From: Candidatus Nomurabacteria bacterium
GTDB taxonomy: Bacteria; Patescibacteriota; Saccharimonadia; Saccharimonadales; CAIOMD01
Assembly: GCA_020631975.1 (NCBI GenBank)
Contig: JACKGO010000001.1
Location: 329,049-393,048, forward strand
Direction of reading: 5' to 3'
Length of the DNA stretch: 64,000 bases
The notes under the pieces were generated by a model. The model did no database searches. It had not been told where the DNA came from and was given only the letters and a program-made list of their open reading frames with translations. Position numbers and translations under genes: made by a program. Below are positions 28,134 to 40,614 of the stretch, piece after piece; within the stretch, counting starts at the first letter, position 1, and each line of letters opens with the position of its first letter.

Positions 28134-28408
28134 AGATAGCAGCTGCTTGTGTTTATGGTGCCGACGTTTTATTTTTGGGCGGGGTTTTATTACTTGTTTT
28201 TTTGGTTTTACTTTATAGATACGCTCCGGCGTCTTGGTGCGCCGTTGCTGTGCTATGGTAGCGTTAGGGCTTTTTTAGTTGTAGACTTGGGCATAGTTAC
28301 CCAGCTCGTTTCGTTACCTCTTCATCACCATGCAAAAACCACTCGTTCGCAATAGCGGAAGTATCAATCTCTCAATTTCAACATCTAACTTTTCTATCAT
28401 CCTTCTAA

Positions 28409-28909
28409 CTAATGATTCTGGATCGCTATCAAAATTATGCTACTTTTGTGTGGTACTTCGAGCTTTTCTATTAAATCTGGCAATACATCTGCGGTGCCAC
28501 CTGTGCCAGTAAGAACACCGCACGGTGTACCATTTTCTATAGCGGTAGCAAACTCGTGCAAACTGCCAAATCTACCACCTATTGTGATAACTGCATCTGA
28601 TGATTGCACCATATATGTATCTCTACCTACATAGTTAAGCCCAGTAAAATTAATGAAGTCAAACATGCCTATAGGTAGTCGATATTTCATCACATGTTCC
28701 CTTAATGATGTGGCTGGTGAAAAACCTATACTAGCACCATGGGCCCTATGGGCTGCTCGTGCTGCGTAAAAAGGTAAGCCTACCGTAGCGCCTGTAGTGA
28801 TTATGTGGCCACTTTTTGCTATGGCCCGACCTACTTTTTCTGCGGCATATTTTGATTGCTCAACGGTTTTACCTGCAGCAGCACCAGAAACACAAATAGA
28901 ATACTTCAC
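28409..28909 (-). CDS. LOG/TIGR00725-like Rossmann-fold protein (putative nucleotide phosphoribohydrolase family)
   Basis: 166 aa. GGRFGSLHE resembles the LOG PGGxGTxxE motif. The GTG start overlaps the upstream stop by 1 nt (TAGTG). Confidence 0.65.
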   Translation of the reverse strand: MKYSICVSGAAAGKTVEQSKYAAEKVGRAIAKSGHIITTGATVGLPFYAARAAHRAHGASIGFSPATSLREHVMKYRLPIGMFDFINFTGLNYVGRDTYMVQSSDAVITIGGRFGSLHEFATAIENGTPCGVLTGTGGTADVLPDLIEKLEVPHKSSIILIAIQNH

Positions 28910-30168
28910 TAAAAACCCCTCCCTTTCACAGATGCATGAATGGTTTCTGGGGCAATTAAACTATTGTTTAGTTGACCCAGTACTTGCTGTTCGAGGGTTT
29001 TTTCGCCCATATAGCGCATAAATAATTCATTCCAAAGGGCTTCTCTAAAGTGAAATACTGCCCTTTTTGCGTATGGTGTGTTATTGCTATAGCTTAGGGC
29101 AATATCCATCAGGTTAAACGTGACTGGTCTACCAGCGTGCATAACACCAACATAATCTAAATCTCGCCACCAGCCTAGTTCTGGGTCTATTTGGTATAAT
29201 ATGTTTTCGGCTTTTCGCCAGTGTAAATCTTCTGGTTGAACGTGTGGTTCAAAAATTTCTGGATGATATTCGTTTTCAAGTTTACCAAAATATCGTTGAA
29301 TGACTCGCCAGTGAACAGCTTGACCCGCCATGACGGCAGCGTCACCCGGGTCGGCGATAAGCGTATTTATGACGATTTCAGCAAAGTTTGGCTTTACTTG
29401 CTGGAGTTTAAAAAATGAACTATACAAACGTATTTCGTTAATATAATGAAATAGTAGTGGCATCACGGTCATGGTAATACCAGGCATTTCAGTAGTTTTA
29501 ATAGGTAGCATTAGTATAATACCAAGCTCTTTTACATGGGTAATGTTGTGTCGTTTTTTGTGAACAAAAGGTTCAGCAATATCTGCCCAGCGATCAGCAG
29601 GCATTGGAACAATTTCTATATCACGCTCTTCAAAATCAGATGGTTTAATATCTGTATATTGTGCATCAAATGCATTAAGCCAGTCTGCACTTTCTGCAAA
29701 CCTAAGCGCACCATAAATTTCAAAAATATTTTCGTTTTTGAGCATACTATCAATGCTTCTGTAGCCAAGCTTTTTCATAATGTTAGGTGGTGGAGTTTTA
29801 CGAAGAAATTCCTTGGCAACACTCTTTTTTAGTACCCAACATTTTTTTGCTATTTTAACTTCTTCGGCTGCAGCCTTCATTTTAGGGAGTAAATCTTGAA
29901 CATCTGTTGCGTTATGGCCACCAATTTGTTTTGCTAAATGTTCATCGTCACGCTTAAACCTATGTAATAACGCAGCATAGAGCTCTTTACCTGTTGTGTC
30001 TTTGGGGTCAAGCCGCAAATCGGCTGTTTTTTGATGTATTTGCCCAATAATCTCGGCAGTTAATCGTACATCAACACCAGGTTTACCACTGGCTTGTTCG
30101 AGTTGTTGTACTGCAATAGTAAACATAGGCTCTGTAGCACCAAGTAATTGTGATATAAATCTAGACAT
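28909..30168 (-). CDS. Hypothetical protein, 419 aa, no family recognised
   Basis: Long ORF with SD GGGGGTGGG upstream of the ATG. It is sandwiched and translationally coupled between the PfkB kinase and LOG-like genes. Confidence 0.7.
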   Translation of the reverse strand: MSRFISQLLGATEPMFTIAVQQLEQASGKPGVDVRLTAEIIGQIHQKTADLRLDPKDTTGKELYAALLHRFKRDDEHLAKQIGGHNATDVQDLLPKMKAAAEEVKIAKKCWVLKKSVAKEFLRKTPPPNIMKKLGYRSIDSMLKNENIFEIYGALRFAESADWLNAFDAQYTDIKPSDFEERDIEIVPMPADRWADIAEPFVHKKRHNITHVKELGIILMLPIKTTEMPGITMTVMPLLFHYINEIRLYSSFFKLQQVKPNFAEIVINTLIADPGDAAVMAGQAVHWRVIQRYFGKLENEYHPEIFEPHVQPEDLHWRKAENILYQIDPELGWWRDLDYVGVMHAGRPVTFNLMDIALSYSNNTPYAKRAVFHFREALWNELFMRYMGEKTLEQQVLGQLNNSLIAPETIHASVKGRGF

Positions 30169-30183
30169 TACCCACCCCCATGT

Positions 30184-31170
30184 TTACATTTCTTTTACTT
30201 TTAGTGGCATCTCATGTACAACATCGTCAATATGTATTATACCTGCTTTAGCACCAATTTTACTTACAACCCGGGTAGAGTTTGCACTGGCGTAAGTCAC
30301 AGCCCATTCCAATGGTTCGCCTGCGGCTATCATCGCAGTAAATCCAGAGCTAAATGCATCACCGGCACCTGTTCTATCTACAACGGGGACGTTTTCATAC
30401 ATGCCCGCTTTGACAATGTGCCATCTATCGGCAGCCATAGCACCTTTGGGCCCATCTGTTACTACAACATAATGCACATCTTTATTCGCTGCTCTAACTA
30501 ATTCTTCTAGCGTTTCCCCTTTATATAAGCTTTGCATTTCTTGCTTATTCATAGACAAAATAGTGAGCTTAGGAATTAGTTTTTTAAGCTCTGCTTTTTG
30601 AGCGAGTTCTTTTTTGCCAGGGTTAAAAGCAATTTTTATATTATGTTGTTGTGCATATGCAAATACGGTATGTAGTACTTCAAAGTTACCATCTAAGCTT
30701 GTTAAATAGATCCATTCTGGTTTAGTGTCATGAAAATCTGCTGTTTTTATACTGTAGTGAGCGCTGGCACCCCTATAGGCTAAAATAGTCCGCTCGCCAC
30801 TTGGGGCTAATAATATACAACTAAAACCACTGCCATAGCCGTTGTTAGACAGCCCAACGAGGCTCGTGTCTACACCATCTTTGTGTAAATCATCCAGTAT
30901 CGCTCGCCCTGCAACATCATCACCTACCTTACCCAAATACATCGCGTGCAAGCCTTGGCGGGCAAATGTTACAGAGGCATTGGTTGCACCTCCGCCCGTA
31001 CTAAATATTACGCCGTCAATATCGTTTTTAGAACCGAGTTCGAACTCTTCTATCATATCGCCATCGCAGTCTTTGTGCGGTTTAAAGATTTTACCTTGCA
31101 AAAATACATCTTGCACAGCTGCTCCGACAGATAAGATTCGGGTATGTTTTCTATGTTCGTGTTTGCTCAT
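30184..31170 (-). CDS. PfkB-family carbohydrate/nucleoside kinase
   Basis: The PfkB signature DRTGAGDAFSSGF is present. The start is ambiguous (ATG 31170 or 31194). Confidence 0.8.
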   Translation of the reverse strand: MSKHEHRKHTRILSVGAAVQDVFLQGKIFKPHKDCDGDMIEEFELGSKNDIDGVIFSTGGGATNASVTFARQGLHAMYLGKVGDDVAGRAILDDLHKDGVDTSLVGLSNNGYGSGFSCILLAPSGERTILAYRGASAHYSIKTADFHDTKPEWIYLTSLDGNFEVLHTVFAYAQQHNIKIAFNPGKKELAQKAELKKLIPKLTILSMNKQEMQSLYKGETLEELVRAANKDVHYVVVTDGPKGAMAADRWHIVKAGMYENVPVVDRTGAGDAFSSGFTAMIAAGEPLEWAVTYASANSTRVVSKIGAKAGIIHIDDVVHEMPLKVKEM

Positions 31171-31276
31171 AATATACAGGGTCCAGTATACCATTTATGC
31201 TTATCGCCGCCTAGCCTGGTTGGTATATGAAACGTTTTTAATATAGGCTATAGACTGCTACAAACAAAACGAAACA

Positions 31277-32716: not shown

Positions 32717-33634
32717 TTAATAGTGGGCTTTGCCTATAGAATTGTAGCTCGCCAGTTTGGTTTCTACGACGGTCTGAACAGCACCATAAACTTCTGGCAT
32801 GAGTTTTACAACGGCGTATTCATCTGGATTTTCACGCAAGACCTTTTCTAAGGTGTCACGGAAGGCGCGGCGCATATCGCTGTTAACATTAATCTTCGTA
32901 ACTCCTGCCCGAACAGCTTCTTCGTAAAAATGAGCCGGCGTGCCACTGCCGCCATGTAAGCTAATGTTAGTGTTTCTTGGTAAGGCTTTTCTGATACGTT
33001 CTAGCAGAGCGATATCTAACGTTTTTGGTACCGGGTAACTGCCGTGTAAATTACCAATAGCAGCCGCATATGTGTCTATGCCAGTATCTTTTACAAACTT
33101 TTCGGCACCACGTGGTGTACTAAATGTTTTTTTAATATCAGCGTAATCAAAAGCCTCTTTGTGCACGTTACTGCTGCCACCAAAGTAATGGGGTTCGCTT
33201 TCTACAATTGCACCAGTGAAGGTTGCATAACGAACAACTTCCCTAGTAGCAATTATTATTTCATTATCTGTTGCGTTGTGATTAGCTTGGCTAACATCTA
33301 TATGAATAAATTCAAATCCGGCATCTATACCCGCTTTGGCAGTTTCTACAGATGGGCTATGATCTAGGTTAATATACATTTCTATGCCAAATTCTTGCTT
33401 GTAATTATCTACCATATCGCGCACGTTCATGAGCCCCATTGCTTCTACTTCGCCATGGCTGACCTCTACCATAAGTGGCGCTTGTAGTTTTTGAGCAGCT
33501 TTTGCAACCGCAATAAGCGTTTCTTGGTTATCTATATTAAACGCACCTACAGCAAATTTCTGGACTCGTGCATTGGCCATTGTTTCGCGTGCTTTAGTAC
33601 AGTTTTGTCTTATTTGTTGTATTGTATGTCCCAT
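32717..33634 (-). CDS. fba: Class II fructose-bisphosphate aldolase
   Basis: YAVGAFN-type N-terminus (FAVGAFNIDN) and the motifs HLDHS-like INLDHS, SLHGGSG and NVNSDMR. Confidence 0.88.
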   Translation of the reverse strand: MGHTIQQIRQNCTKARETMANARVQKFAVGAFNIDNQETLIAVAKAAQKLQAPLMVEVSHGEVEAMGLMNVRDMVDNYKQEFGIEMYINLDHSPSVETAKAGIDAGFEFIHIDVSQANHNATDNEIIIATREVVRYATFTGAIVESEPHYFGGSSNVHKEAFDYADIKKTFSTPRGAEKFVKDTGIDTYAAAIGNLHGSYPVPKTLDIALLERIRKALPRNTNISLHGGSGTPAHFYEEAVRAGVTKINVNSDMRRAFRDTLEKVLRENPDEYAVVKLMPEVYGAVQTVVETKLASYNSIGKAHY

Positions 33635-34559: not shown

Positions 34560-35540
34560 CTATTGCTTTCCGGTTGCAGACAACAACTCGTGAGCTGTGA
34601 GCATAATATGCTTTGCTGTTAGGCCAAAGTGCTTTAAAAGTTCGTCTGGTGACCCACTTTCTCCGTACTTGTCCTTTACACCCAAACGGCGCATTGGCGT
34701 AGGGTGGTGTTCAGACAATACCTCTGCCACCGCACCGCCAAGTCCACCAGCAATTTGGGCTTCTTCTATAGTAATCACGGCACCTGTTTTTTTGGCACTT
34801 TGCAAAATAGTAACGGCGTCTAGTGGCTTAATCGTAGGTACGTGTACAACTTCGGCTGATATGCCATCTTTAAATAATGATTCTGCAGCCATCAAAGCTT
34901 GATATGTCATTGTGCCAGTACTGATAATCGTTATATCGTCGCCCGGCTCATACACATACGCTTTGCCAATTTCAAAAGGAGTCTTAGTAGTGCTTATTAC
35001 TGGTGTAGCCTCACGGGCAAGTCTTAGATAAGCTGGGCGTTTATCTTTAGCAATTGCTAAGGTAGCTTTTTCTGCTTCGATGGCGTCTGCAGGAACAATC
35101 ACAACCATGTTCGGCATCACACGCATAAGGGCAATATCTTCGAGCATTTGGTGTGTAGCACCGTCTGCTCCAGTGTACAAACCAGCATGTGAACCAACGA
35201 TTTTTACAGGTACATCGTTCAGTGCTACCGTGGTTTTAATTTGTTCCCAGTTGCGCCCTGGGCTAAAGGCTGCATAGCTACTAATAAACGGAATTTTGCC
35301 AGCAATTGCTAAGCCTGCGCCTACTGTTGCGAGGTTTTGTTCGGCGATGCCTACTTCAAAAAACCTATCGCTAAAAGCATCGCGAAACAAATGCATTTGA
35401 GTGCTTTCTGTTAAATCTGCACAAAGTGCCACTACGTTTTCATCAATTTCTGCCGCTTTAACAAGACCCGTACCAAACCCTTTACGAATCGGGGATTTTT
35501 CTATGTCTTTTTTGGTATAGTCATTTAAATATAAAATCAT
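34560..35540 (-). CDS. Transketolase, C-terminal (pyrimidine-binding) subunit
   Basis: GFGTGL..., EVGIAEQN and a C-terminal transketolase domain. The ATG at 35540 overlaps the upstream stop (ATGA). Confidence 0.9.
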   Translation of the reverse strand: MILYLNDYTKKDIEKSPIRKGFGTGLVKAAEIDENVVALCADLTESTQMHLFRDAFSDRFFEVGIAEQNLATVGAGLAIAGKIPFISSYAAFSPGRNWEQIKTTVALNDVPVKIVGSHAGLYTGADGATHQMLEDIALMRVMPNMVVIVPADAIEAEKATLAIAKDKRPAYLRLAREATPVISTTKTPFEIGKAYVYEPGDDITIISTGTMTYQALMAAESLFKDGISAEVVHVPTIKPLDAVTILQSAKKTGAVITIEEAQIAGGLGGAVAEVLSEHHPTPMRRLGVKDKYGESGSPDELLKHFGLTAKHIMLTAHELLSATGKQ

Positions 35541-35836
35541 TTTTTTACTTTCATAATTGCAAATATACTTAAATAGCCTACCGCAGACCATATAATAATA
35601 TCTGTAAGAAGCATTATTGGTTGCAAGCCTTGATTTTTTGAATGATTAGGCTCTATTAAATACGTAAATGGCAAACCATGATTATACATGGTAAGATTGC
35701 AATCAATAGTATAGTCTATATCTGTACCTGTACAATACTCTCCTTGGGTGGTGGGTGCGTACCAATATGTTAATGCAGTAATAGTTACGCCAACAATAAA
35801 AGATAGACTGATTTTTTTAGCAACATTACTACTCAT
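35537..35836 (-). CDS. Small two-TM membrane protein (100 aa) inserted between the transketolase halves
   Basis: ATG at 35836 with AGGAG 5 nt upstream. It overlaps the tktN 3' end by 8 nt and the tktC start by 4 nt, and has N- and C-terminal hydrophobic helices. Confidence 0.65.
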   Translation of the reverse strand: MSSNVAKKISLSFIVGVTITALTYWYAPTTQGEYCTGTDIDYTIDCNLTMYNHGLPFTYLIEPNHSKNQGLQPIMLLTDIIIWSAVGYLSIFAIMKVKK

Positions 35837-36689
35837 GTTCGCTCCTGATGCGGCCCTGTAGGGTACGGAGTTCTTGCAGCGCAAGCTTGGCTTGTGCGTG
35901 ATTAGGGGGCATACCATGCCAACGGAAATCGTATTCCATAAAATCTACCCCTTTACCCGGTATAGTATGGGCAATTATCATGACAGGTTTTTCTACCACT
36001 GCGCGAGCCATTGCACAGGCGTCTATAACAGCCTCTACATCGTTACCATCTATTTCAATCACATGCCAGCCAAAGGCTTCCCATTTAGCACGTAAATCTT
36101 CTAACGGCATGACTGTTTCTGTTGGGCCATCAATCTGTATATTGTTGCGATCTATAATACCAATGATATTGTGTAGTTTATGGCGCGGCGCCATCATAGC
36201 TGCTTCCCATATATTGCCTTCGTTTAGCTCACCGTCACCCATAACTACATACACCCAGCGATGATGCTGCTTATTAAGTCGTAACGCTAAGCCTATTCCG
36301 ATTGCCTGGCTAAGTCCACAGCCTAGAGGACCACTTGTAGATTCTACACCTGGTAGCTTCGTGCGTTCGGGGTGCCCCTGTAAGCGACTTCCATATTGCC
36401 GCAGTGTATGTAGCTCTTTTTTGTTAAAGTAGCCTGCTTCTGCCAAAGTAGCGTACAGCACCGGTGCACAGTGCCCATTACTTAATAGTAGATAATCTCT
36501 TTCGTCCCATTCTGGTTTTTTTGAATCATGTTTTAATATATCAAAATAAAGTGCTGTAAAAATATCAGCTAAGCCTAGCGGGCCAGCTGAATGGCCACTG
36601 CCTGCTGTTTCGAGCATCGTAATAATATCTTTTCTAATGGAATTTGCTTTTTTTTCTAAATCAGCAACCGATAGTTTTTTTGTACTCAT
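35829..36689 (-). CDS. Transketolase, N-terminal (TPP-binding) subunit
   Basis: GSGHSAGPLG, GDGELNEG and a TPP-binding fold; 286 aa. Confidence 0.9.
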   Translation of the reverse strand: MSTKKLSVADLEKKANSIRKDIITMLETAGSGHSAGPLGLADIFTALYFDILKHDSKKPEWDERDYLLLSNGHCAPVLYATLAEAGYFNKKELHTLRQYGSRLQGHPERTKLPGVESTSGPLGCGLSQAIGIGLALRLNKQHHRWVYVVMGDGELNEGNIWEAAMMAPRHKLHNIIGIIDRNNIQIDGPTETVMPLEDLRAKWEAFGWHVIEIDGNDVEAVIDACAMARAVVEKPVMIIAHTIPGKGVDFMEYDFRWHGMPPNHAQAKLALQELRTLQGRIRSEHE

Positions 36690-36736: not shown

Positions 36737-37366
36737 CTACGAAACAATATCTACAAGTTCTTTATAGCGCGATGCTGGATTATCGGCACTTTGAATGCCG
36801 CTACCAACATTAATAACGTCTATACCAGCATTTTTAATTGCTAGAACGTTCTGTGTGTTTGCACCGCCATCCCAGCCATATGTTAGGTGTCTACTATATT
36901 TTTTAGCTTCATGAACTTTTTGTAGCTGCTCCAAATCTGCATTGCCACCATGGAACCCTAGTTTACCGCCAAATATTAACAGATGCTGAACGTGTGGCAA
37001 CCACTGAGCAATACTATCAAGCGAAGTTTCGGGGAGGAGCGCTAGACCAGTTTGTATACCGTGTTCGCGCATTGCTGTAGCAAAGAGTGGAATATCGGTG
37101 TCAGATTCGGCATGAATAATAACCAGTTTAGGTTTTAGCGCCACTAATTCGCGTACGATTTCTTGTGGACGGCGATACATTACATGGATATCTAGTGCTT
37201 TATCTGATGGGAAATGCATGTCACGTAGTGTTGGCGAGCTTTTTGGTGTGAAATCACCATCCATAATGTCTATATGTAAACGTTCAGCAAAAGCGCTTAC
37301 CGCGCGCAACTGGCGATTAAAACTATGTGTATCGTAGGCTGTCACAGTTGGGCAGATAGTAATCAT
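36737..37366 (-). CDS. rpe: Ribulose-phosphate 3-epimerase
   Basis: TIM-barrel Rpe pattern (HIDIMDGDF, DIHVM); 209 aa. Confidence 0.8.
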   Translation of the reverse strand: MITICPTVTAYDTHSFNRQLRAVSAFAERLHIDIMDGDFTPKSSPTLRDMHFPSDKALDIHVMYRRPQEIVRELVALKPKLVIIHAESDTDIPLFATAMREHGIQTGLALLPETSLDSIAQWLPHVQHLLIFGGKLGFHGGNADLEQLQKVHEAKKYSRHLTYGWDGGANTQNVLAIKNAGIDVINVGSGIQSADNPASRYKELVDIVS

Positions 37367-37420: not shown

Positions 37421-37864
37421 CTACAGTGAATCTAGTTCTTTGTTGCGCCTAATAAAGCGCGGTGCATTCGCAAACGGTGTCGTCAGAAATTCGTCTATTA
37501 TTGCGTATACTTCTTGGGGATTGGTATCGTATAGTTCCGCAGGTATCGCGAGTACGTTCGCGTCTTCATCGTTACGAACGCCACGGGCTGCCGCGCGGCT
37601 CCAACCTAACCCTGCACGTATACCTTTAATACGATTTGCAGCCATAATCATTCCTTGACCACTACCACATAGTAAAATTGCTCGCGAATCGGTATTAGTC
37701 AGCACGCTACTTGTAGCCTTCGCTGCAAATACAGGAAAATCATCTGTAGGATCATATCTGTCATCACCACTATCGGTAGTGTCATAACCGCGTTTTTTTA
37801 GATATGTAATAATCGATTCCTTAGCGGTGAAGCCACGATGATCAGCTGCTACAAATAGCTTCAT
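37421..37864 (-). CDS. rpiB: Ribose-5-phosphate isomerase B
   Basis: RpiB/LacAB pattern (ADHRGF, LLCGSGQGM); 147 aa. Confidence 0.85.
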   Translation of the reverse strand: MKLFVAADHRGFTAKESIITYLKKRGYDTTDSGDDRYDPTDDFPVFAAKATSSVLTNTDSRAILLCGSGQGMIMAANRIKGIRAGLGWSRAAARGVRNDEDANVLAIPAELYDTNPQEVYAIIDEFLTTPFANAPRFIRRNKELDSL

Positions 37865-37869
37865 TGTAT

Positions 37870-38946
37870 TTAGCCTTCTAAGTGTGTTTCTTCGGGGCCT
37901 ACGTAGCTCGCGGCTGGCTCGTTGCTACTTTTACGTGCAACACTGCTACCGACGTCTGCTGTTAGCTCTACGAGACGGTTAGAGTACCCCCACTCGTTGT
38001 CATACCATGCTACAACTTTAAGCAGATTTCCACCAACAACGCTGGTAAGTGACAGATCTACCGTTGAGCTGTGGCTATTACCAATAAAATCAGATGATAC
38101 TAATGGCTCATTGGTTATCGCTAAAATGCCTTGGTAGTATGGTTCGCTAGCGGCTTTTTTAAAAGCATCGTTTACTGCTTCTACAGTTACCGTTTGCTTG
38201 GTGACAATAACAAAGTCAGACAAGCTGACGACAGGTGTCGGTACGCGCACACTTAACCCACCAAATACTCCAGCTATTTCTGGTAATGCTTGGCCAGCTG
38301 CAATTGATGCTCCAGTTGTAGTAGGTACAATGTTTTCGGCAGCATTGCGGGCTTCACGCAAATCTTTGGCCGGTGCATCTTGCAAACGTTGGCTTGCAGT
38401 ATAACTATGTACTGTTGTCATCATTGCTTTATCTATACCAAAGTTTTGGCTTATTACGTCCATTACTGGTGTAATGCAATTTGTCGTACAGCTTGCATTA
38501 CTTATGATGTCACTTGCACCTTCAAGCTTATCTTCGTTTACCCCTAAGACAATAGTGGTTGCGCCTTCACCTTTTGCCGGTGCACTAATCACTACTCGCT
38601 TTGCCCCAGCCTGATCTATGTGTGCGCGGGCTTTCGCAGGGTCAACAAAAAAGCCTGTACTTTCTATCACGACATCTACCTCGAGATCACCCCAAGGTAA
38701 AAGAGCGGGGTCAGTTTGCTTGTACACACGGACCGGTTTGCCATCAACAATGATATGTTCTTCATCGGACGCTACTTCGTGATGGTATGTACCATAGTTA
38801 CTATCATGTTTAAGTAGATGGGCAAGCGTTTTTGTATCTGTTAAATCATTAATTGCTACGATTTCAATATCTTTTCTTTCAAATGCTACCTTAAATGCAT
38901 TGCGCCCTATACGCCCAAAGCCATTAATTGCTACCTTTGTTACCAT
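37870..38946 (-). CDS. gap: Type I glyceraldehyde-3-phosphate dehydrogenase with ~20-aa C-terminal extension
   Basis: INGFGRIGR, SNASCTTN and WYDNEWGYS motifs. ATG at 38946 with SD AGGGAGGG; the ORF-track start 39012 is rejected. Confidence 0.92.
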   Translation of the reverse strand: MVTKVAINGFGRIGRNAFKVAFERKDIEIVAINDLTDTKTLAHLLKHDSNYGTYHHEVASDEEHIIVDGKPVRVYKQTDPALLPWGDLEVDVVIESTGFFVDPAKARAHIDQAGAKRVVISAPAKGEGATTIVLGVNEDKLEGASDIISNASCTTNCITPVMDVISQNFGIDKAMMTTVHSYTASQRLQDAPAKDLREARNAAENIVPTTTGASIAAGQALPEIAGVFGGLSVRVPTPVVSLSDFVIVTKQTVTVEAVNDAFKKAASEPYYQGILAITNEPLVSSDFIGNSHSSTVDLSLTSVVGGNLLKVVAWYDNEWGYSNRLVELTADVGSSVARKSSNEPAASYVGPEETHLEG

Positions 38947-39011
38947 GTGTCCCTCCCTGATTGTTGTACGTTTATGTTTATTGTATATGCTTATGGCATT
39001 CGCCTCAAGCA

Positions 39012-39539
39012 TTAGTTACTATATCGCTCTATACACTCTGAAATTATTGTTTTGGCTTCTGCCACGTCGCCCCAGCCAAGCACTTTGGTACTGCCAGGTT
39101 TTTTTAAATCTTTATAGTGGGTAAAGTGGTGTTCAATTTGTTGTTGCCACCGGGTGCCTAAATCTTCTAGGCTGTTAATGCTATCCCCTGTCTGACGATC
39201 ATCTGCAGGGACGCATACGATTTTGTAGTCCATTTCACCATCGTCTTCAAAATTTAATATGCCAATCACTTTTGCTTCTAGCCATATGCCCGTGGGCAGT
39301 GGTTCGTTCGTAACAACGAGGGTATCTAATTCATCGCCGTCTTCATCGAGCGTACCAGGAATAAAGCCATAGTTTACTGGTTTGGCAAAAATTGCTGGCT
39401 CTACACGGTCTAACATAAACGCGGCATGTTCACGATCCCACTCAATTTTGTGGGAACTCCCTTTCGGTATTTCAATTACAGTGTTTACGAGCGCTTTTTG
39501 CCAATCGCCTGGACTTAGTACTTTATTAAAATCAGCCAT
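39012..39539 (-). CDS. ppa: Inorganic pyrophosphatase (family I)
   Basis: IEIPKGS..K.E.D, YGFIPGTL..DGD.LD; SD AGGAG upstream. Confidence 0.9.
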   Translation of the reverse strand: MADFNKVLSPGDWQKALVNTVIEIPKGSSHKIEWDREHAAFMLDRVEPAIFAKPVNYGFIPGTLDEDGDELDTLVVTNEPLPTGIWLEAKVIGILNFEDDGEMDYKIVCVPADDRQTGDSINSLEDLGTRWQQQIEHHFTHYKDLKKPGSTKVLGWGDVAEAKTIISECIERYSN

Positions 39540-39583: not shown

Positions 39584-40231
39584 ATGCAAATTATTTCTCA
39601 TCGTTGCGAAACACTCAGCGCTATCCATGCTGCTGCTACGTACGATGTAGCGTATATAGAGTTTGATATCCGGTACACGAAAAATAATAAAATAGTTGTG
39701 TATCATAACGATAAAACACCATCTGGCAAAACTATTGCACATATAACCTTAAAAGCATTGCAGCGTGAAGTTGAAGATACCTGCGAGCTTGCTCCGGCCT
39801 TGGTTGCCTGCGGTAACAGGCCCGCTTTGGTAGAATCAAAGTCTAAAGGGACGATTGCTCGTTCTCTGCCCGAGCTTAAAAAAAACCATCGGGCAGCAGT
39901 AGCCAGCTTTCATGCAGATGAAATTTTAGCTGCGCGTATCAACTTGCCGTCACATAAAACATTTTTGCTGCAACGATACCATCCTTTTGGAATTATTCGC
40001 AAAGCATTGAATGTAGATGCGCACGGTATAGGGCTGAACAAAAACTGGATCTTGCTGTTCCCTTACTATTACAACCAAGCGCAAAAAAACGAACTAGCTA
40101 TCTATACCTACACTGTTAATAACCTATGGCTAGGGCGTCGTCTCCAGGCGTTATTCAAAAAATTGTTTATTTGTACTGACTATCCTCATAAGTTTACAAA
40201 AACCACCCCTGCGAGCAGCACTAAATCATGA
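39584..40231 (+). CDS. Glycerophosphodiester phosphodiesterase (GDPD)-family protein
   Basis: IISHRC...YIEFDIRYTKNNKIVVYHND matches the GDPD N-terminal pattern. Confidence 0.6.
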   Translation: MQIISHRCETLSAIHAAATYDVAYIEFDIRYTKNNKIVVYHNDKTPSGKTIAHITLKALQREVEDTCELAPALVACGNRPALVESKSKGTIARSLPELKKNHRAAVASFHADEILAARINLPSHKTFLLQRYHPFGIIRKALNVDAHGIGLNKNWILLFPYYYNQAQKNELAIYTYTVNNLWLGRRLQALFKKLFICTDYPHKFTKTTPASSTKS

Positions 40232-40614
40232 CTAAACGTTGGCGCATTATTGTTGTAATTACTATATTAGGGCTTATTATTGGCAGTACCACCGCTTACT
40301 TATTAATGAAAAAATCAGAATCTCGCCAAGATATACCGTTGCCTTCGTTGCAAAAAGAAATCACCTTGGCAGATATGCAAAACCATGCAAACGAAACAAG
40401 TTGCTGGACGTATATCGGAGGTCAAGTATTTGACGCTACAACTGTTATACGGGATTTTCCAGACTATAAAACAATTCTTTTACGCACTTGCGGTACAGAT
40501 GGTTCAGATGTGTTTGTCGTAAAAAAATACGAAACACAACAACTAACTAAAGAAACACTCACACAACTACGTCAGACACTGAACAATCACCAAATTGGTT
40601 TACTAATCCCTTAA
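40228..40614 (+). CDS. Membrane-anchored cytochrome b5-like domain protein lacking the canonical heme-ligand histidines
   Basis: N-terminal TM helix. ITLADMQNHANETSCWTYIGGQVFDAT is b5-like, but HPGG is replaced by FPDY and the second His region by GTDGSD. Confidence 0.55.
   Translation: MTKRWRIIVVITILGLIIGSTTAYLLMKKSESRQDIPLPSLQKEITLADMQNHANETSCWTYIGGQVFDATTVIRDFPDYKTILLRTCGTDGSDVFVVKKYETQQLTKETLTQLRQTLNNHQIGLLIP

Follow-up and report, generated by a model that had tools for sequence, protein, structure and literature searches.

A PfkB-type kinase, an orphan protein and a LOG-superfamily protein at the distal end of a putative sugar-phosphate operon in Saccharibacteria

Three co-directional genes were read from the minus strand of a 64,000-nucleotide stretch of DNA deposited as Candidatus Nomurabacteria bacterium (GenBank assembly GCA_020631975.1, contig JACKGO010000001.1, positions 329,049 to 393,048; hereafter the window). 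They encode a PfkB-family kinase, an orphan protein of 419 aa, termed unk419, and a LOG-superfamily protein of SLOG cluster 4 (SLOG4). An earlier note on this DNA, made from the sequence alone, had described them as a three-gene cassette that would turn nucleosides into ribose-5-phosphate. The present analysis suggests that the cassette is the downstream end of a sugar-phosphate operon of the candidate phyla radiation (CPR), consisting of a kinase resembling phosphofructokinase (PFK), a dependent unk419 and an added LOG protein; taken as a whole, this reading has in our judgement an even chance of being correct.

In the proposed scheme, the kinase would be the lineage's substitute for the 'missing' 6-phosphofructokinase and would resemble Escherichia coli Pfk-2, with a lysine donated by the beta-clasp of the partner subunit. 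It would put a phosphate on C1 of fructose-6-phosphate, feeding the adjacent class II aldolase, and may possibly act also on sedoheptulose-7-phosphate, in which case cleavage of sedoheptulose-1,7-bisphosphate would bypass the missing transaldolase. For its function, unk419 would depend on PfkB, and it would assist the kinase-aldolase module by catalysis or by binding a metabolite. In Saccharibacteria, judging from the chemistry of its family, the LOG-superfamily protein would hydrolyse scavenged nucleoside 5'-monophosphates (NMPs) to base and ribose-5-phosphate; the latter would join the RpiB/Rpe/transketolase part of the operon, and unk419 might couple or regulate its entry.

For a decade, reconstructions of CPR (Patescibacteria) metabolism have scored phosphofructokinase and transaldolase as missing, the former and usually the latter being reported absent from Saccharibacteria and other CPR (PMC6031116, PMC7143001). 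A PfkB-type kinase with a class II aldolase, usually with an orphan protein of about 400 aa between or beside them, forms a widespread module that could close this gap. The pairing of kinase and aldolase as the phosphofructokinase solution of CPR is already known: in 2025, the glucose-induced TM7x_02415, annotated as a ribokinase and lying in an operon with a fructose-bisphosphate aldolase (FBA), was predicted to be a pfkB-type PFK (PMC12815258). The LOG chemistry of the third component is likewise known. We found no published discussion of unk419 as a near-universal third component in a central carbon operon of two CPR classes, of its maintained fusion or pairing with LOG, or of its asymmetric dependence on the kinase.

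The kinase and its conserved partners

Linkage was counted from the contig regions around each locus, the Saccharibacteria set consisting of 80 species-level genome loci centred on unk419. Across these, the recurring order is GAPDH-RpiB-Rpe-TktN-TktC-(EamA)-FBA-PfkB-unk419-SLOG4-UvrB, where TktN and TktC are the transketolase halves. The window reads PPase-GAPDH-RpiB-Rpe-Tkt-FBA-PfkB-unk419-SLOG4, with the three-gene cassette as the distal end. The earlier note had linked the cassette to an rpiB/rpe/transketolase block; the tie stands, but the block belongs to the same conserved operon and is not a mere region 4-9 kb away. PfkB lies upstream of unk419 in all 72 loci with enough flank (directly adjacent in 58), in most at a spacing of -4 to about +100 nt, and FBA adjoins PfkB in most of the 80. 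Downstream of unk419, a LOG-superfamily gene is found in 75 of 78 loci, adjacent in 70 and typically at -4 to 0 nt. Distant Saccharimonadia (29% identity) keep PfkB-unk419, and their LOG, a canonical TIGR00730 member, is encoded on the opposite strand.

The pair is also kept in Parcubacteria, where PfkB is found immediately upstream of unk419 in eight of eight unk419-centred loci, with spacings from an overlap of 1-4 nt to a few tens of nt. Six of these show the order (GAPDH-RpiB-Rpe-)TktN-TktC-PfkB-unk419; FBA follows immediately or one gene downstream in four of the six (L085, L087, L090 and L174) and about 5 kb downstream in L086, and none lies within range in L089. One of the two other loci reads PTAC-AckA-PPDK-Eno-PfkB-unk419-FBA, and in the last the PfkB-unk419 pair stands alone beside type-II secretion genes. 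No LOG gene was found in the eight loci.

As a reciprocal test, metagenomes were scanned with the CPR-type kinase, which gave 80 loci, 70 of them with enough downstream flank. The next gene is unk419 in 56 of the 70, an aldolase, sometimes overlapping, in seven, and an unrelated gene in seven; FBA comes after unk419 in 30 of 43 kinase-centred metagenome loci, and a LOG gene was found in none of the 80. Since LOG is absent from the eight Parcubacteria loci and from the kinase-centred loci, the conserved unit is the PfkB-unk419 pair, not three genes, and LOG is a Saccharibacteria-specific addition to the module. The cassette of the earlier note is therefore a conserved coupled unit in Saccharibacteria, but not in the eight Parcubacteria and 80 kinase-centred loci.

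Several Parcubacterial loci without unk419 (L144, L150, L152, L155, L162, L167 and L168) read PTAC-AckA-PPDK-PfkB-FBA-L25-SLT, with no LOG and no pentose genes. They share their framework with the unk419-bearing L088 and L174, so that a clean presence/absence difference is seen. Among the kinase-centred loci, the presence of unk419 tends to go with an upstream Tkt or Rpe (24 loci) and its absence with an upstream PPDK (5 loci), an association confounded by phylogeny. None of the sampled loci has unk419 without the kinase, and the kinase, together with the aldolase, sometimes occurs without unk419; the dependence is therefore asymmetric. The Parcubacterial lineage lacking unk419, in which kinase and aldolase genes overlap, represents a natural 'knock-out' for comparison.

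In Pfam, the kinase passes PF00294 of the PfkB/ribokinase superfamily (135 bits against a cut-off of 25.8, E=4e-39), and the DRTGAGDAF signature reported earlier is present. It falls below every NCBIfam equivalog cut-off, the top score being that of ribokinase TIGR02152 (121 against 299.65 bits); it is likewise under those of PRK11142 (ribokinase, 75 against 341 bits) and TIGR03828 (pfkB/1-PFK, 53.8 against 292 bits). Matches to archaeal nucleoside and ribose-1-phosphate kinases are weak and far under the cut-offs for ribose-1-phosphate kinases. Fourteen CPR PfkBs were then aligned with E. coli RbsK and Pfk-2 (NC_000913.3), the numbering being checked against published residues. GXGD with the catalytic Asp (RbsK D255, Pfk-2 D256) and NXXE (N187, E190) are invariant. 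The motif-I lysine of ribokinase, K43 (XGKG), is replaced by G or N in all 14, the ribose ligand N14 by V or T, and E143 is variable; all 14 have a Lys in the column of Pfk-2 K27. In Pfk-2, Gly in place of the motif-I Lys makes room for the substrate OH2, and Lys27 from the partner chain assumes the role of that Lys, contacting the 1- and 6-phosphates (PMC6429617). Absence of the motif-I Lys together with retention of Lys27 argues that the kinase is most likely a CPR phosphofructokinase, and its assignment as a 1-kinase of fructose-6-phosphate, perhaps also of sedoheptulose-7-phosphate, seems rather probable. A classical ribokinase or nucleoside kinase appears unlikely from these residues.

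The earlier note had proposed that PfkB acts as a nucleoside kinase yielding NMPs, which the LOG-like protein would split to base and ribose-5-phosphate, unk419 serving as a third catalytic or specificity subunit. This route, quite improbable as a whole, has in its favour that the LOG-superfamily protein retains catalytic residues, that RpiB, Rpe and Tkt are in the operon, that the PfkB family includes nucleoside kinases, consistent with the weak archaeal matches, and that Saccharibacteria rely on scavenged nucleotides (PMC6031116). It is contradicted by Parcubacteria that keep PfkB-unk419 beside FBA without LOG, and by PPDK-PfkB-FBA operons that have neither LOG nor pentose genes. In addition, the kinase step would be superfluous for LOG, since scavenged nucleic acid already gives NMPs, and the TM7x orthologue responds to glucose (PMC12815258). 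A nucleoside kinase is accordingly not supported: the constant partners of the enzyme in CPR are unk419 and class II FBA, and its Lys is of the Pfk-2 type. The step from NMP to ribose-5-phosphate and base stays plausible, given the retained Arg and Glu of LOG enzymes and the canonical LOG that replaces SLOG4 or is fused to unk419 elsewhere, but the three-gene route is not a conserved unit.

Two PfkB paralogue types share one operon slot in Saccharibacteria; their identity to the window kinase is 55-75% for one type and 31-34% for the other. Type 2 has VGNAANA instead of the GGGATN motif (paralogue loci L029, L054, L082 and L084), and both types are found in tandem in L048 (3780-5986) and L049 (3972-5938). 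Their tandem occurrence in few genomes suggests duplication followed by alternative loss, perhaps with differing sugar-phosphate substrates.

The orphan protein unk419 and the weight of the evidence

Relatives of unk419 number 2954 at E<=1e-3 in a database clustered at 90%, and fall into 803 clusters at 50% identity. Named members come from Saccharibacteria/Saccharimonadia and, in a second branch, from Parcubacteria (Wolfe-, Brenner-, Azam-, Colwell- and Portnoybacteria), and the family is CPR-restricted. Mean column identity reaches 75% among 50 Saccharibacterial sequences. Across 149 sequences (28-89% identity), P127, Y171, F179, E180, H207, E214, W334 and D355 are invariant, and K114, Y136, E146, E159, W163, D178, W194, N208, W287, Q291, H309, E313, W317, N352 and Y386 are at least 90% conserved. 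This set of carboxylates, His, Asn and many Trp and Tyr looks like that of a catalytic or a sugar/nucleotide-binding site. No motif had been recognised in the protein before, and database searches bear this out: unk419 alone has no match in Pfam, NCBIfam, PADLOC or PHROGs, 52 diverse members gave no match in a Pfam scan even at E<=5, and no match was obtained among PDB sequences with phmmer or with the 149-sequence profile. One database record names a Wolfebacteria homologue 'glycosidase related'.

Structure prediction, which the earlier note had suggested, gave AlphaFold2 models with pLDDT 78.8 and pTM 0.79 from 50 sequences, and pLDDT 83.8 and pTM 0.83 from 149 sequences. The latter model is confident, but Foldseek found no fold relative for either among 350,542 PDB chains (best E 0.6, TM<0.2). 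In both models, a large helical domain of lower conservation makes up the N-terminal part and precedes an alpha/beta region, and the conserved polar residues are mostly at predicted strand ends or in loops. Segments 273-280, 303-315 and 398-419 are of low confidence, and 303-315 holds part of the conserved FEPHVQPEDLHW motif. The recurrent Foldseek matches to a TUTase, Cas1 and (alpha/alpha)6-isomerases were judged noise. A ketose-3-epimerase-like metal site formed by E146, D178, H207 and E245 was set aside, the model not being a TIM barrel, and so were PD-(D/E)xK or nucleotidyltransferase motifs, whose spacing and topology do not fit. P0121 (582 aa) had been considered as a fusion of unk419 to another domain but is a partial internal duplication: at its N-terminus, roughly residues 1-75 of the family's helical domain are repeated, and a linker is added.

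Invariant Asp, Glu, His and Trp at predicted strand ends and loops suggest an auxiliary with catalysis or binding, not an inert scaffold. Probably, unk419 serves the kinase-aldolase module as an auxiliary with a catalytic or ligand-binding role and is also coupled to LOG in Saccharibacteria. There is a substantial chance that it is a new enzyme. More tentatively, and clearly short of an even chance, it may be an enzyme of new fold or an obligate catalytic partner of PfkB that supplies a 'missing' step of CPR central carbon metabolism. Candidate steps are sedoheptulose phosphate handling that replaces transaldolase, or the entry of scavenged nucleoside or nucleotide ribose into the pentose-phosphate/glycolytic stream; a function of the transaldolase or SBPase type is named as a further alternative. 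If unk419 is an enzyme or a catalytic partner, the kinase-unk419-aldolase(-LOG) set would be a CPR-specific solution to the PFK/transaldolase gap. With about 800 clusters, enzyme-like conservation, a confident model, a fixed operon position and, in Saccharibacteria, a fusion with a nucleotide N-glycosidase that has been kept, the protein is among the better-defined 'dark matter' of CPR genomes, and since Saccharibacteria are now cultivated and genetically tractable, the question of its role is directly testable.

Alternatively, unk419 may be non-catalytic, a stabiliser, regulator or scaffold that tethers kinase, aldolase and LOG in the manner of GatZ/KbaZ, which supports a class II tagatose-bisphosphate aldolase, or of the domains beside LOG in PpnN. 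The unk419 gene always accompanies that of the kinase, with translational coupling on both sides; the protein can be lost while kinase and aldolase remain, is fused to LOG in some genomes and has a big, less conserved N-terminal helical domain; its size of about 410-420 aa also matches that generally known for GatZ. We regard this as unlikely, since invariant E180, H207, E214 and D355 and near-invariant K114, D178, N208, H309 and E313 suit an active or ligand site over an interface, and neither the Pfam scan nor Foldseek against PDB showed any resemblance to GatZ or the PpnN domains.

According to another explanation, all three proteins would harvest ribose: unk419 as a new N-glycosidase or phosphorylase freeing ribose or ribose phosphate from nucleosides, PfkB as a non-canonical ribokinase and LOG as the enzyme acting on nucleotides, each leading to ribose-5-phosphate for the pentose-phosphate genes. 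The invariant carboxylates, His and Trp of unk419 are typical of sugar- or base-binding sites, some genomes join the protein to an N-glycosidase (LOG), its loci mostly have Tkt or Rpe upstream and those without it PPDK, ribokinase is the best NCBIfam match of the kinase, and the 'glycosidase related' record from Wolfebacteria points the same way. This explanation is nevertheless improbable. The kinase has none of the motif-I Lys, N14 and E143 of ribokinase, its gene directly overlaps that of the aldolase where unk419 is absent, unk419 resembles no glycosidase in sequence (Pfam) or fold (Foldseek against PDB), and the association with Tkt or PPDK is confounded by phylogeny.

Several observations weigh against the proposal of a PFK-like kinase with a dependent unk419. 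Ribokinase models are the best-scoring ones for the kinase in NCBIfam, though far under their cut-offs. In PfkB-family nucleoside kinases, the motif-I Lys has also been lost. The columns of Pfk-2 R29, R90 and R105 hold D/E/P, G/I/T and I in the CPR enzymes, in variable regions where the alignment is uncertain, and because these Arg are not conserved, phosphosugar specificity is suggested at most. The kinase-aldolase pair does without unk419 in some lineages, and in one lineage unk419 and a transaldolase gene coexist, which argues against a pure transaldolase-replacement role. Ordinary glycolysis has no step between PFK and aldolase, so the role of unk419 is not explained by the pathway itself. 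The roles of all three proteins are inferred from sequence, context and models.

Furthermore, Saccharibacterial genomes are highly collinear, with UvrB and GatCAB as equally conserved neighbours, and synteny within this group alone is therefore weak evidence. It might accordingly be thought that the three genes have no functional link and that they are adjacent simply because reduced genomes rearrange slowly and pass on their gene order, as the equal 'conservation' of UvrB and GatCAB would allow. This is very improbable: PfkB-unk419 survives in several Parcubacteria surroundings, even alone; the LOG partner is kept even where it is inverted, where canonical LOG takes the place of SLOG4 or where it is fused; and overlapping stop and start codons are common.

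The LOG-superfamily protein and the layout of the locus

The third protein meets PF18306 (SLOG cluster 4) with 99.1 bits against a cut-off of 26.3 (E=2.4e-28). It had been called LOG/TIGR00725-like; it keeps the Arg and Glu of LOG enzymes and is under the cut-offs of TIGR00725 (58.1 against 106.9 bits) and of the canonical LOG models PF03641 (18.2 against 27 bits) and TIGR00730 (35.8 against 96.35 bits). The GGRFGSLHE reported earlier is present, within IGGRFGSLHE, which departs from the LOG motif PGGxGTxxE by P to I and T to S. The closest structures are 1rcu (Thermotoga VT76), the LOG-like 6y01, the Moco carrier protein and LOG enzymes. Among 74 Saccharibacterial orthologues, TGATxGLP, Y-x-GRD, GGRxG[ST]LHEF and GTGG are invariant, including R96/D97 and H118/E119, and R96 and E119 align with the equivalent positions of 1rcu. 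The corresponding Arg and Glu are catalytic in LOG enzymes. To our knowledge, no member of SLOG cluster 4 has been characterised.

Canonical LOG proteins are found in the same position. For instance, the LOG of the distant Saccharimonadia locus L082 passes TIGR00730 (126 against 96 bits), and in P0076 and P0122 unk419 is fused to a canonical LOG domain with the motifs GGGxGxME, RK and PGGFGTxDE. Since these two proteins are 57% identical over all 658 aa, the fusion is maintained and not an artefact. With Arg and Glu kept and canonical LOG substituting or fused at this position, it is reasonable to infer that SLOG4 may cleave NMPs to base and ribose-5-phosphate, the product then entering the RpiB/Rpe/Tkt steps.

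The stop codon of SLOG4 at 28409, where the cassette of the earlier note ends, is that of the assembled sequence but is premature, the intact form having 204 aa. After ...PHKSSII, single-base indels shift the frame twice, once in a T-run near 28430 and once near 28371, and shorten the window protein to 166 aa. This form occurs only on one contig, of 409 kb, and the otherwise identical 204-aa form (P0525), which corresponds residue for residue to the two-frameshift reconstruction ending at 28297, occurs on 43 contigs. The frameshifts are most likely assembly indels. They may also signal further indels in the assembly of the window.

The tight linkage described before was found in all particulars, from the shared minus strand to the 15-nt gap and the 1-nt TAG/GTG overlap (Table 1). 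Exactly 15 nt separate the kinase TAA stop (30186-30184) from the unk419 ATG at 30168, and the Shine-Dalgarno sequence GGGGGTGGG claimed for this gap is present in ACATGGGGGTGGGTA. The TAG of unk419 and the GTG start of SLOG4 share 1 nt (TAGTG). The open reading frame (ORF) of PfkB runs over 30184..31194; ATG at 31170, the start in NCBI records, is the likely start. A promoter/terminator scan of 27.5-33.8 kb gave no signal exceeding shuffled expectation.

Table 1. Features of the cassette and of the operon upstream of it in the window
Feature	Position	Strand	Basis and remarks
PfkB-family kinase, CPR type	30184..31170	-	328 aa; PF00294, motifs, neighbourhood
Spacer ACATGGGGGTGGGTA carrying Shine-Dalgarno-like GGGGGTGGG, 5' of unk419	30169..30183	-	read from sequence
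unk419, 419-aa orphan protein	28909..30168	-	ORF, large homologue family
SLOG-cluster-4 gene	28297..28909 intact; 28409..28909 as assembled	-	PF18306
DUF2130 protein, 409 aa	31277-32506	-	Pfam E=6e-90; weak JetC/MukB-like PADLOC match
Predicted class II ketose-bisphosphate (FBP-type) aldolase (FBA)	32717..33634	-	NCBIfam TIGR01859 1e-56, TIGR00167 2e-53
Split transketolase halves	34560-35591 and 35829-36689	-	ORFs and Pfam
Rpe	36737-37366	-	ORF and Pfam
RpiB	37421-37864	-	ORF and Pfam
GAPDH	37870-39012	-	ORF and Pfam
Inorganic pyrophosphatase (PPase)	39012-39539	-	ORF and Pfam

Against the class II aldolase models, the window FBA scores 181.5 bits, below the cut-off of 215.6, and a Parcubacterial orthologue 228.6, above it; homologues carry PF01116. 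In the window, the DUF2130 gene separates FBA from PfkB, and in many relatives these two are adjacent or nearly so. The transketolase halves are 237 nt apart, and the gap region (35537-35917, minus strand) has an ORF of 126 aa whose C-terminus is hydrophobic and which has no Pfam match. Small genes of unrelated kinds (GIY-YIG, acetyltransferase, DUF5671) likewise stand between TktN and TktC in the Parcubacteria loci L086, L089 and L090. On the opposite strand just upstream of the operon (39584-40614, plus strand), a GDPD-family protein that looks truncated is encoded, as is a protein resembling cytochrome b5, and a Brennerbacteria contig (L086, 10095-11998) has a Cyt-b5 gene and a ferric reductase gene near the module. 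As to taxonomy, the records MCB9817277-79 of the 409-kb contig matching the window include one protein labelled 'Candidatus Nomurabacteria bacterium', and identical proteins elsewhere are labelled Saccharibacteria, likely a taxonomic mislabel; P0317 ('Verrucomicrobiae') and P0458 ('Nanoarchaeota') are apparently mis-binned.

Comparison with known systems

Archaeal NMP and pentose-bisphosphate pathways also bring nucleotide ribose into central carbon metabolism, by way of a PfkB-family ribose-1-phosphate kinase, to which haloarchaea add a class II aldolase (PMC9700705). The CPR cluster differs in having no genes for AMP phosphorylase, ribose-1,5-bisphosphate isomerase or RuBisCO; its predicted aldolase is of the FBP type, not the fuculose-1-phosphate type, and its kinase is far under the ribose-1-phosphate kinase cut-offs. 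In PpnN, additional domains with a regulatory role accompany the LOG domain, and the enzyme provides ribose-5-phosphate for the pentose-phosphate pathway. The window protein belongs to the same SLOG superfamily and keeps the Arg and the Glu of GGxxG[ST]xxE, and other Saccharimonadia have a TIGR00730 LOG in its place; however, it is a member of SLOG cluster 4 under the LOG and TIGR00725 cut-offs, and unk419 is unrelated to the PpnN flanking domains.

In the GatY-GatZ and KbaY-KbaZ tagatose-bisphosphate aldolases, the gene for a class II aldolase of about 285 aa stands beside that for a partner of about 420 aa, which is itself non-catalytic but without which the aldolase is not fully active and stable; the pathway has a PfkB-type kinase step before the aldolase. 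GatZ and KbaZ are TIM barrels (PF08013) to which unk419 has no sequence or structural similarity, and unk419 is linked most tightly to the kinase, not to the aldolase.

Among characterised kinases, the comparison is with E. coli Pfk-2, which acts with class II FBP aldolase. Both kinases belong to the PfkB/ribokinase fold family with GXGD, NXXE and the catalytic Asp, and the CPR kinase is proposed likewise to supply a class II aldolase; in it, too, the motif-I Lys is replaced and a Lys occupies the position of Lys27, which in Pfk-2 acts in trans through the beta-clasp (PMC6429617). The CPR kinase differs in being approximately 20% identical to Pfk-2 and far under the pfkB/1-PFK cut-offs, with R29, R90 and R105 not conserved, and in having a longer lid insertion, an invariant DR[TS]GAGD and an extra encoded partner of 400 aa.

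Finally, PFK and FBP aldolase can stand in for transaldolase via sedoheptulose-1,7-bisphosphate in clostridia and E. coli, the known cases being Clostridium thermocellum, E. coli tal mutants and Entamoeba, where these enzymes and transketolase work without transaldolase (PMC7029132, PMC2758719). These involve PfkA-type or PPi-dependent PFK, not PfkB-family enzymes, and no unk419-like component, and the activity of the CPR kinase on sedoheptulose-7-phosphate is putative. In CPR, Tkt, kinase and aldolase lie in one operon in lineages reported to be without PFK and transaldolase (PMC6031116, PMC7143001). Such a Tkt-kinase-aldolase operon fits the sedoheptulose-bisphosphate scheme.

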